Shown here: positions 28,016 through 33,652 of the stretch, one piece after another
Layout of the letters: each line of letters begins with the position of its first letter
Numbering within the stretch: position 1 is the stretch's first letter
IMG/VR virus record: IMGVR_UViG_3300035188_000399
Span: 1-64,000 of that record
Strand: one strand, 5' to 3'
Length of the DNA stretch: 64,000 nucleotides
Source: a virus
The notes under the pieces: generated by a model
Databases searched by the model: none
What the model was told of the DNA's origin: nothing
What the model saw: only the letters and a program-made list of their open reading frames with translations
Position numbers and translations under genes: made by a program

Positions 28016-31000
28016 TTATCCTATTCCATAGAAACCCCAATCATCATCAAACTTAGTTGGATCGGGAATTTCACTCATAACATCTTTTTTAGTTAAGATG
28101 TCTTTTTCTGTTAATATTTTACCACCGACAACTGATTTGCCTGCTACAGGTATTAATCCTTTGTCAATAGCTTCGTTTAAATATTGATCATATAATTCTT
28201 TAGGGAAACCTCTTGCTAACATTTCATCTAATGTAACTTTAACAGGATTTTTATCTAATACATTAGCGTAAAGTTTTCTTATACCCTTCCGGGCCTCCAA
28301 CATATCGGCTGCATTGGCGAAAAACGCATCGTGAATGGTGCTTGTGGCAATCTTATTGTCTCGTCCCCATAGGTGGAAATTTTTGACCAATGTTGCGTCA
28401 TTGGAGTGGTTTCCGTTGACTGCATAAGCTGTGCGTGCTTTTGTGGCATCTGCGATATCATTTATTTTCCCATCAGCATTTACTACTTGTTCCCACCAAG
28501 TAGCTTCGGTCTTTTGTTGTATTTGGACTAAGTTATTAATCCAATTACCATCTTTATCTTTATATGCTAATCGTTCTTCAAAAGATTGTGTGAAATTTTG
28601 TTCGATAATCTTACCATCAAAATTTACCCATGGGACATTAGTCCATGACTTAGGAAGCTTATTAGCATAAAATATTTCAAAACCTTTAGATATATTTAAT
28701 TTTTCAATAGGTTCTAATCTAAATACCTTAAATCCAGTACGTCTGTCATTAGGTGCTTTTACACCATATATTAAATCAGCTAATGTTCCATCTGGTTTCC
28801 AGCCATCAAATCGTTTTAAAAATTTCTCTGATAGCGCTTCACCAGCTTTTAGTCCTAGTATTTCACTTATCCTGTCAGGGAGGACATAACCTTTTTTACG
28901 AACACCTAAAACTGCGGTAGTTCCTATTGATTTCCAATCTAAAGCAGCTTGAGAAGGTTTGGCATTAGTCAGGTAATCTTCAGCCAATCTGCCGAAAAAT
29001 TTTGTAAAGTCTTTTAAAATAGGTACTTGTTCACTAAGATGCTCAGACATTAATTTAGCAATAGCTTGAAAATCTCTTGGCGTAACAACCATATCATAGG
29101 TATGTGTCATCTTTTCCACTAAGTCTTTAGTGGCAGGATCAAGGAAATATAACTGTTCCATAATCTCGTCACCAGGATCTAGGCCTTTATTAAATATGTC
29201 TTTTACATTTTCTCTTAATTGTTTTAGTTGCGCAGTAGTTTCAGGATCAAACTTTTCATATCTTGCTGCACGTGCTGATATTTCATTTAATACTTTGTCT
29301 CTATCACTAGCTCTAACAACTAAAGTAGGTGCAAATGTTTCAGGCTTTTTAGCTACATTAACTAATTCTTCTTGTAACGCTGAATTAAGATCTGAAATTG
29401 TCTTTTCTGTATCTGTAGTAGCAGGTGTAAATCCTGCATCTTCCAAAGCCATTTCAGCTGCTTGTTTATTTGTCTTTAGATTATAAACACTAGCTTCATC
29501 TTTAATGATAGTATCTTCACCAAATCTATTTGACTTTAAAATACGTTTTTGAGCTTCTAATAATTTGAAAGCTCTAGAATCAGAAGGGACATTTAAAGAT
29601 TTTAAATGCTCATCCAAAAACTCACCGAGTTCTTCTACAACTTGCATAGCAATATATTTCTTAGTATCGCCTTTTGAGCGCTGTTCAAATTTAGCTTTAT
29701 TTTCAGCTATTTTCTCTTTAGAAAATTTCTCGCCAGTCTTATGATCGAATGTTTTATATGTAGCACGTTCTTTTCGTTCATCTGTTAGTTCAATATCAGC
29801 GGTATGTAACCATTTAAATGTATCTTTTAACTCTGCAGGAGATAACTTACCTTTCATAGCTTTAGCAATTAAATCACCTTGAGCTTTAATAATTTCGTCT
29901 GGTGTACCTACATAATTAGGGTCTGTTTTGTTTTCAACACCTAATACACGTAATAAGCCAGCTGAGTCTTGTCTTTCAGATAACAAACCTTCTGTCACTT
30001 TTACTTCAGGCGGTTTTGCAGGTTTCTTTTCCAATACTTTTGCAAGCTTACCTTCAACATTAAGAATTCCAGTTCTTTCTCCAGCTCCATAAAACGTAAC
30101 CATATTTTGAGCTTTTGCAGCTTTACGTAAATCCTTTTCATTGAGACCTAATCTTTCATTTAATACTTTAAATCGTGGATCATTAAATGTTGCTGCAGCA
30201 ATTTCATCATATAGACGTCTTTTCTGATTTGTAGGAACAACATTAGATAGCGATGCAAGCTGTTTATTCTTAGTAGTTAAAGCAATAATCTGTGCACCAG
30301 ATGACGAAGCATCTTGTTCAAGAGCAAGAGCAGTTTTATAGGAATTCATTCTATTAGTTGAAGCTAAATTTTTCAAATCTGACTCAGACAAAGTGTAATG
30401 CAAAGGACTACTTCCAACATCTGATTTAGTTTTTATTTCAAATGTTTTAGATGTTTTAGCTGCATATTTCAATCTATCTACGCCTCTCGAATGCCCAACT
30501 ACTAATGCTGCTTTTTGATCAGGTTCAGTAAAATCTGCACCAATGTCAAATTCAACTCGATAACCGTTATTTTCTAACTTAGCTTTTATATCGTTATAAA
30601 ACTTATCAGCTAACGGATTACCTTTTATAAACTTAGGATTACCTTTTACGATAACAGCTAGTGGTTTTTCATTTAGATAATTATCTATCTTAGCCGCTTC
30701 CATAGCAAACCTAAAGAACTTACCTAACTCTTCGCCTTCAACTAATTGCACCATATCAGACTCTAATATAGCGCGAATATCTCCTGGTTTACCACGTAAC
30801 ATTTTATTACCAATATCTACCATCTCTGGCCACAATTTATCAGCAATCTTTTGTCTGCCTGTAAATGACAATGAATTATATCTGCCTTCAAATACATCAT
30901 TCAGACCGCCCATGAACGCGCCTATTTGATCTCTAAAGTTTCTATAACCATCTTCACCAAGAACTTTTTCAACTTCAGTATTTAAGAAAGGTCTGAATGA

Positions 31001-33652: not shown

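Follow-up and report, generated by a model that had tools for sequence, protein, structure and literature searches.

A MuF head protein fused to a T7-type RNA polymerase in siphovirus-type phages, a candidate for a capsid-delivered transcription enzyme

The stretch of DNA analyzed here, the window, comprised positions 1-64,000 of the 77,545-bp IMG/VR virus record IMGVR_UViG_3300035188_000399, which CheckV rated as 100% complete. All substantial open reading frames (ORFs) of this genome are on the minus strand. One of them, P0001, extends without interruption over 28016..33652 (minus strand) and encodes a protein of 1878 amino acids (aa), in which a MuF head-morphogenesis module precedes a T7-type RNA polymerase (RNAP) module; the protein is called MuF-RNAP in the following. 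The portal gene is located directly upstream of the ORF start at 33652 (33662..35251, minus strand; phrog_145, E 1.1e-55), and this adjacency was kept in 26 of the 26 related loci examined. On the downstream side follow two small ORFs, the scaffold gene (26809..27447), the major head gene (25564..26787), and the genes for an adaptor, the major tail protein, and a tape measure protein of 3892 aa. The phage is an uncultured one from lake water, and the layout of its genome is siphovirus-type. The MuF-RNAP gene sits in the late operon, in the portal-MuF-scaffold-capsid slot, and its MuF domain is the sole one in the whole genome. The uninterrupted ORF and its slot had been described before in a first-pass annotation, and the annotation of the ORF and its neighbors confirmed both.

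MuF-RNAP is composed of a MuF module (aa 1-372), a conserved middle region (aa 373-564), and a T7-type RNAP module (aa ~565-1878), all encoded on the minus strand like the sequence motifs described below. The MuF or SPP1 gp7 head-morphogenesis module occupies 32537..33652, with its Pfam and TIGRFAM core at 32903-33217 (aa 146-254). PF04233 matched aa 146-250 with 52.2 bits at a curated cut-off of 29.6, TIGR01641 (phageSPP1_gp7) scored 56.1 bits at a cut-off of 39.65, and phrog_241 (“head morphogenesis”) spanned aa 4-372 with an E value of 2.6e-60. The MuF signature LDxxTxxxC / PPxHxxCRS is located at 32909-33013 (aa 214-248), and the invariant residues in the family alignment include T219, C223, P240, P241, H243, C246, R247, and S248. 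The middle region (31961..32536) is present in all full-length relatives; neither a family match nor an informative fold match was found for aa 373-564. The RNAP module (28019..31960) starts with a small N-terminal domain (aa 565-860), which is followed by thumb, palm, and fingers. It was matched by PF00940 in two stretches with 39.7 bits at a cut-off of 22 and by phrog_414 (“RNA polymerase”) with an E value of 1.4e-19. The profile check proposed in the first-pass annotation, Phage_Mu_F plus RNA_pol on one protein, consequently gave scores above the cut-off for both families.

The catalytic motifs of the single-subunit RNAPs were found in the expected order, each of them, like the MuF signature, at the place noted before. 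VDHRARIY (aa 866-873; 31025..31057 for VDHRARIYDRG with flanks) aligned to MDWRGRVY of T7 RNAP, motif A EQDASSSGAQ (30290..30319, aa 1112-1121) with the predicted catalytic Asp 1114 aligned to FDGSCSGIQ, and VNGNHSNDA (28394-28420) aligned to PNFVHSQDG. Motif B, RKAAKAQNMVTFYGAG, is at 30080..30127 (aa 1176-1191), with an equivalence to T7 by pattern only, and motif C TIHDAFF with the predicted catalytic Asp 1775 is at 28319..28339 (aa 1772-1778). Family alignments of 20 to 46 relatives, with identities down to 23%, revealed a set of invariant or nearly invariant elements: the MuF core LD..T...C / PP.H..CRS, the stretch D.R.R.Y..G...P..GE..RPFL, motif A E.DAS.SG.Q, motif B K..K.......YGAG, VNG.H.NDA, and TIHD of motif C. 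The residues E, D, A, S, and S of motif A were invariant among the aligned relatives, and across 46 sequences the catalytic Asp residues, the Lys and Tyr of motif B, and DxRxRxY showed either full conservation or conservation of at least 90%. The family profile matched the T7 RNAP sequence with an E value of 8e-12, with a residue-level alignment of DxRGRxY, motif A, the HSxD segment, and motif C. A single-sequence phmmer search of the PDB with the whole MuF-RNAP yielded nothing relevant, so that the family profile and a fold comparison were needed.

An AlphaFold model of aa 700-1878 reached a predicted local distance difference test (pLDDT) value of 77.4 and a predicted template modeling score of 0.71. 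It could be superimposed on T7 RNAP (T7 residues 249-883) with a Z score of 29.4 and a root mean square deviation of 3.9 Å over 539 aligned residues, and the Foldseek match to T7 RNAP had an E value of 2.3e-9. Mitochondrial RNAPs gave Z scores of 26-29, compared to 21.4 for the N4 mini-virion RNAP and 13 for full-length gp50 of N4. The predicted polymerase fold is nearer to T7 and mitochondrial RNAP than to the N4 mini-virion RNAP. In a model of aa 1-900 (pLDDT 86.6), the part from aa 565-900 displayed modest similarity to the small subunit of N4 RNAPII (Z 9.6; 219 of 250 residues) and to the N-terminal domain of T7 RNAP, residues 30-448 (Z 9.4; 141 residues). A fold search with aa 1-246 returned generic helical-bundle matches only and was uninformative on the MuF fold.

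With 1878 aa, MuF-RNAP is about 330 aa longer than its relatives with their usual length of ~1540 aa, because of inserts on the minus strand. Insert 1 (30353..30673, aa 994-1100; phrog_30942) is a small mobile domain present in only some relatives, with homologues that stand alone or occur in multidomain proteins with GNAT domains, a weak PARP-like match, or KTSC domains. Insert 2 (29318..30040, aa ~1205-1445) follows directly after motif B, was modeled with low confidence, and is shared only with the closest relative, P0002, among 20 aligned relatives. Insert 3 (28637..28945, aa ~1570-1672) occurs in about one-fifth of the aligned relatives. By every criterion that could be applied, MuF-RNAP qualifies as a genuine member of the MuF proteins and of the T7-type RNAPs alike. 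The conserved catalytic residues and the T7-like predicted fold agree with the claim of the first-pass annotation that the RNAP part is complete, and it is apparently active.

The fusion is not restricted to this record. The identical protein was encoded on 11 contigs, and at least 16 lake-water DNA runs contained half or more of the sampled words for this stretch, the runs containing it belonging to 18 studies dated 2020-2025. Among the read-run contig pieces listed, none bridged the MuF-RNAP junction. In total, 378 database proteins matched MuF-RNAP, and nearly all of the matches listed carried PF04233 plus PF00940. An exhaustive search of representatives clustered at 50% identity revealed full-length fused forms down to ~25-30% identity, and at least 593 IMG/VR contigs encode a relative. 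Presence of the fusion on hundreds of independent contigs indicates that it is neither a chance event nor a chimera. Cultured phages possess it as well: the roseophages DSS3_VP1 and DSS3_PM1 (Naomviridae) encode an orthologue with 32% identity, annotated as “head morphogenesis” (DSS3_VP1 gp108, YP_010105321), and the order of the replication genes is common to the window genome and DSS3_VP1. The first-pass annotation had named no characterized example and left room for uncharacterized homologues; no describing paper was indeed found, and the uncharacterized homologues turned out to be very numerous.

Three candidates for an RNAP-only homologue were rejected. P0148, apparently an unfused RNAP of 785 aa, was a truncated gene call of a fused ORF of 1504 aa; P0039 was a fragment without a start methionine; and the 6.8-kb contig of P0038 ends before the whole gene could fit. 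No genuine unfused form was present among the apparent RNAP-only homologues examined, although no search aimed at shorter homologues was made. In EBPR siphovirus 1, deposited in 2011, the orthologue with 58% identity is split into gp47 and gp49. The interruption lies exactly inside motif B (..KAAKAQNMV / TFYGAG..; piece coordinates 9179-10120) and consists of a group-I-intron-like element with 40.5 bits, below the gathering score of 50, plus the HNH gene gp48. In the IMG/VR relative G008, the MuF-RNAP match also falls into two separate open frames of 1103 and 460 aa. Among 185,579 species genomes, a single metagenome-assembled genome contained a MuF-RNAP relative, on a phage-sized scaffold of 74 kb, so that the phage family looks lytic and not prophage-borne.

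The window genome encodes a second RNAP. This canonical T7-like enzyme is located outside the window at genome positions 71479-74452 (minus strand; piece-local 7476-10446), in the presumed early region, and was recognized in two parts by Pfam (E 1.2e-35 and 1.9e-23) and by phmmer with T7 RNAP (E 7.2e-27). An insertion of 754 nt is positioned exactly inside its motif B (..KRNTMTLP / Y / GGSSYG..) and contains a group I intron (RF00028, 58.7 bits, piece-local 8703-8916) and an ORF for an HNH_3 endonuclease (piece-local 8217-8672). Rfam at the gathering threshold found nothing in the whole genome; searches limited to regions then found the group I introns. The insertion in EBPR siphovirus 1 MuF-RNAP is at the same relative site as this intron. 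In the relative G001, the canonical RNAP is uninterrupted, has 743 aa, and ends in YAFA. Around the motifs, MuF-RNAP and the canonical RNAP share only ~27% identity, indicating that the two are old and separately maintained enzymes. Both were present in 10 of the 10 complete or near-complete genomes tested, which were the window genome, eight IMG/VR relatives, and DSS3_VP1 (second RNAP, gp080), with the canonical enzyme at ~745 aa. The first-pass annotation had proposed a late-made polymerase for host-independent early transcription. The late operon slot and the sole MuF domain fit this proposal, but an ordinary early T7-like RNAP is also present, which points to a relay of two polymerases instead of a single late-made enzyme for everything.

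Two classes of promoter-like motifs were found. Class A was written as CCCGTTAAATTAACCC, with the exact copies CCCGTTAAATTAACCCTAA; class B is TGCGG-N7-GGTATCTTATATG with 18 specified positions. Exact copies of class A numbered six in the genome and five in the window, those of class B five and three. All of them lie between genes and have the orientation of the genes, and for either class the number expected by chance was 0.00. One pair of class A motifs (27524-27542 and 27638-27656, minus strand) separates the MuF-RNAP gene from those for scaffold and capsid, a second pair (48446-48464 and 48602-48620, minus strand) heads the packaging-portal-MuF-RNAP operon, a single copy (53364..53382, minus strand) is ahead of the gene at 52615..53229, and the copy at genome position 67865, outside the window, is ahead of replication genes. 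Variants are at 1427-1445 (CCCGTTGAATTAACCCTTC, minus strand) and at genome position 77001. At 27560-27620, 48560-48600, and 1390-1425, a degenerate second copy (tCCCCCT..ATTAtAATCCCTTAG) trails a class A motif by ~6-10 nt, and these doublets look like tandem promoter-like elements of related sequence. The class B copies are at 571-595 and 1322-1346 in a left-end module (571..1445), at 54030..54054 in the middle of the genome, all on the minus strand, and at genome positions 75717 and 76899, at the head of the early region with the canonical RNAP further downstream. Behind class B come ribosome-binding sites and genes, among them that of the canonical RNAP.

The arrangement of both motifs was constant across four genomes (65-93% RNAP identity, 36-44% G+C), in the order class A variant, class B, small genes, canonical RNAP, class A, and downstream operons. 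Exact class B motifs were found in 67 IMG/VR stretches, and in 30 of the 67 a co-oriented canonical RNAP gene, with 48-98% protein identity, was located 0.9-5 kb downstream. Since the canonical RNAP is not able to start its own synthesis, class B must depend on either the host RNAP or a phage enzyme made beforehand. Going by its sequence, class B is unlike a sigma-70 promoter: 15 nt separate its TTGCGG- and TATATG-like parts, and the first T varies. In DSS3_VP1, neither class A nor class B was found. This phage has a repeated intergenic motif of its own at comparable positions, (ATAGGGTG)CGTTAAAGAGGGGGA, ahead of the packaging, portal, and replication operons (e.g., 2333, 7414, 19237, 19333, 29402, and 46551, piece coordinates), with CGTTAAA common to class A.

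In two metatranscriptome runs, contig-level RNA-library depth was ~20-60 over the MuF-RNAP gene versus 270-625 over the scaffold and capsid genes, while the DNA runs had a flat depth across both. Contig depth is unfit for comparing genes, so that the difference is at most a faint sign of strong promoter activity of the class A pair at 27.5 kb.

The head of the early region is present twice in the record. Positions 1-1968 and genome positions 76062-77543 are diverged copies, ~86% identical with one exact stretch of 127 bp, and each contains a class A variant, two class B motifs, and small genes; the module at 76062-77543 heads the early region. With only ~86% identity, direct terminal repeats of the contig were rejected. 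The similarity reflects either a diverged duplication of the early-region head or strain mixing during assembly. A non-coding element of ~250 bp with 55-63% G+C, in a genome of 36% G+C, is positioned immediately upstream of the first promoter-like motifs of the early-region head (window 1463-1720; genome 77020-77330). It is 88% conserved in G001; at the corresponding position, the relatives G002 and G003 have stretches that are likewise G+C-rich but dissimilar in sequence. A role in packaging, as an origin, or as a signal for entry is conceivable for this element. A hammerhead ribozyme at 134-199 was not found by Rfam in window positions 1-2000, even at E ≤ 1.

These data can be combined into a model in which MuF-RNAP would be a capsid-delivered virion RNAP on a MuF anchor that turns on a second polymerase in an N4-like relay, a reading to which a probability of about 0.6 is assigned on the basis of sequence, predicted fold, and analogy. 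The packaging-portal operon would supply MuF-RNAP late in infection. Through the MuF/gp7 module at its N terminus, the protein would dock on the portal and reach the procapsid in a few copies, like SPP1 gp7, and at infection the protein would exit with the DNA. The polymerase module would then transcribe the first-entering operon, most likely from class B promoters. This operon encodes the canonical T7-like RNAP of ~745 aa, which in turn would read class A and thereby transcribe the operons for replication, packaging, and the capsid. The binding to the portal, the packaging and ejection of the protein, its activity, and the assignment of the polymerases to the motifs are proposed here by analogy and from comparative genomics.

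The precedents for the single steps are known from other phages. The portal protein gp6 of SPP1 targets gp7 into the procapsid in few copies (PMC6316719), and gp7 supports the start of infection, virions without gp7 being only ~25% infectious (PMC6316719; PMC5576092). Enzymatic cargo at the C terminus of MuF proteins is a known theme, with delivery into the host as the proposed function (PMC5512222; PMC5576092; PMC6316719). N4 injects its virion RNAP, and the early genes transcribed by it encode a second, T7-like RNAP, RNAPII (PMC4496689; PMC5512222). The siphovirus P23-45 deploys two RNAPs in succession, first a virion enzyme fused to the tape measure protein and then a non-virion one, and each of them has a separate motif (PMC10770324).

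Several points weigh against a capsid-delivered relay. Virion incorporation, ejection, and activity of the family members are deduced by analogy, the paper describing the Naomviridae mentions neither an RNAP nor virion proteomics, and for MuF-fused cargo in general, delivery is no more than “proposed” (PMC6316719). At the early-region head, class B is itself preceded by a class A-like motif, so that the assignment of the polymerases could be reversed or shared. The N-terminal domain of the RNAP module is small, and its closest match, the small subunit of N4 RNAPII, reached a Z score of only 9.6; N4 RNAPII needs a cofactor. Finally, the 213-kDa protein would have to traverse a tail that is set by the 3892-aa tape measure, and class B may be read by the host RNAP.

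The last point leads to a different division of labor, which is judged as rather unlikely: the host RNAP would transcribe the early operon from class B, as in T7, and MuF-RNAP would have another job. It might be a late transcriptase in the producing cell or a packaged motor that pulls or holds the DNA at entry, with RNA synthesis being secondary. The gene is late with class A motifs ahead of it, sequence alone cannot assign class A or B to a polymerase, and an RNAP-driven genome internalization is used by T7. Against such a role for the host RNAP speak the 18 class B positions that remain exact across phages with 36-44% G+C and canonical RNAPs of only ~50-60% identity, which would be unusual for a sigma-70-type promoter, and also the 15-nt spacing and the variable first T. 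Moreover, a separate canonical RNAP would already serve the late, high-output operons. It is considerably less probable that a packaged polymerase mainly primes DNA replication or makes short RNA at the entering end instead of mRNA. T7 and mitochondrial RNAPs also prime replication, and the G+C-rich non-coding element just upstream of the first promoters at the early-region head might fit such a function, but ribosome-binding sites and genes including the canonical RNAP gene follow class B, and the phage encodes its own primase-helicase.

Even more improbable is a catalytically dead RNAP part that serves as a structural or DNA-binding appendage of a head protein. The strong divergence from T7 RNAP, reflected by the empty single-sequence search of the PDB, and the three lineage-specific inserts would agree with a loss of function; the family-wide conservation of the catalytic Asp residues, the Lys and Tyr of motif B, and DxRxRxY would not. 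Moreover, intron-like elements tend to target highly conserved coding sequences, and the insertion in EBPR siphovirus 1 is located exactly in motif B. The fusion as an artefact of assembly or gene calling, finally, came to mind because the record is a metagenome contig, the diverged duplicate ends of which may reflect strain mixing. The identical protein on 11 contigs, the at least 16 lake-water DNA runs with half or more of the sampled words, hundreds of diverged relatives encoded by one ORF, and the fusion in the cultured DSS3_VP1 refute it for practical purposes, and with it the assembly chimera that the first-pass annotation had named as a possible objection.

Some other features of the window were recorded. 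Downstream of the MuF-RNAP gene, an ORF of 82 aa (27659-27907, minus strand) encodes a Tad2-like protein (Thoeris anti-defence 2; PF11195, E 4e-22), and a Cys-rich ORF of ~44 aa (~27877-28011) is located between the two. The tape measure protein (10712-22390, minus strand) carries TMP_3 at aa 57-244. By the rule of thumb of ~0.15 nm of tail per tape-measure residue, its 3892 aa imply an exceptionally long tail. A tail fibre of 2153 aa (2993-9454, minus strand) ends in a Peptidase_S74 chaperone domain, and two tandem paralogous tail proteins of ~700 aa each, with internal repeats (38376-42599, minus strand; phrog_5939), are encoded between the packaging genes and the portal gene. The gene of the large terminase (45349-47656, minus strand) is split into an N-terminal part (47114-47656) and a C-terminal part (45349-45897) by a group I intron (46904-47182, 67.9 bits) plus an ORF for an HNH endonuclease (46192-46869).

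Comparison with the known systems places MuF-RNAP between several of them. Like MuF-RNAP, gp50 of N4 belongs to the single-subunit RNAPs of the T7 family. It is synthesized late, travels in the capsid, and is ejected for the transcription of early genes, and the same logic is proposed for MuF-RNAP. However, gp50 has ~3500 aa, a central RNAP, and its own regions for ejection and encapsidation, including a metallopeptidase-containing C terminus, does not possess MuF, and belongs to a podovirus, whereas MuF-RNAP has 1878 aa, an N-terminal MuF module, and an RNAP that extends to the C terminus in a siphovirus-type genome. With this different architecture and a predicted fold nearer to T7, MuF-RNAP is not a member of the N4 virion RNAP family. 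Modules of the N4-like virion RNAP occur only in N4-like phages (PMC5512222).

SPP1 gp7 and Mu gpF share with MuF-RNAP the N-terminal MuF module encoded beside the portal gene, and the combination of an N-terminal MuF with a C-terminal enzyme in the head module, as in MuF polymorphic toxins and polyvalent proteins, is also found in MuF-RNAP. The known cargo consists of toxins and effectors (ART, RelA/SpoT, RNases), mostly in temperate phages, whereas the cargo of MuF-RNAP is a polymerase and the family looks lytic. Another parallel is the siphovirus P23-45, in which the virion RNAP gp96 is likewise joined to a structural protein and, with the non-virion RNAP gp64, forms a cascade of two polymerases with two distinct promoter motifs. 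Its enzymes are of the two-barrel cellular type and the anchor is the tape measure protein; here, both enzymes are T7-type, and the anchor is a portal-associated head protein. T7 RNAP itself has the same fold as predicted for MuF-RNAP and the same catalytic motifs, with promoter-like motifs of ~19-25 bp here, but is an early, free, and unpackaged enzyme of 883 aa, in contrast to the late and fused MuF-RNAP with three inserts and a reduced N-terminal domain. Its close analogue in the window phage is the canonical RNAP (E 7e-27, C-terminal YAFA). DSS3_VP1 gp108 and gp47/gp49 of EBPR siphovirus 1 have the same portal-MuF-RNAP-scaffold-capsid synteny as the window; these orthologues of ~1460-1540 aa are without inserts 1 and 2 and were annotated only as head proteins.

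The MuF-RNAP fusion is not mentioned in the MuF survey (PMC5576092; “polymerase” occurs 0 times), in PMC5512222, in the Naomviridae papers, or in the survey of T7-like promoters. A literature search, with subscription journals outside of its scope, found no paper describing MuF-RNAP, and only PMC5512222 combined terms for MuF and single-subunit RNAP.

For the biology of these phages, a more far-reaching reading, less probable than the relay itself, would be a transcription programme that needs no host RNAP at any stage. It would apply to the whole lineage, which is common in lakes and seas and to which the Naomviridae with their deoxyuridine DNA belong. A MuF-tethered T7-type RNAP would leave the capsid together with the leading DNA end, start at class B, help by its transcription to draw the genome in, and hand over to the canonical RNAP, which would read class A for all middle and late genes. 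Few designs of a virion-packaged RNAP are known: N4 gp50, gp66 of crAss-like phages, the phiKZ-type multisubunit enzymes, and the tape-measure fusion of P23-45. If the proposed relay is true, a MuF-hitched T7-type RNAP would be a further and very simple design and the first polymerase cargo of the MuF delivery platform. The fusion itself is abundant, being found on hundreds of lake and sea contigs and in the cultured Naomviridae. Because the host of the latter, Ruegeria pomeroyi DSS-3, can be cultivated, the idea is open to direct experiments. In addition, two new phage RNAPs of compact size are available from this family, and since a sharply delimited candidate promoter accompanies each of them, they could serve as orthogonal transcription tools.

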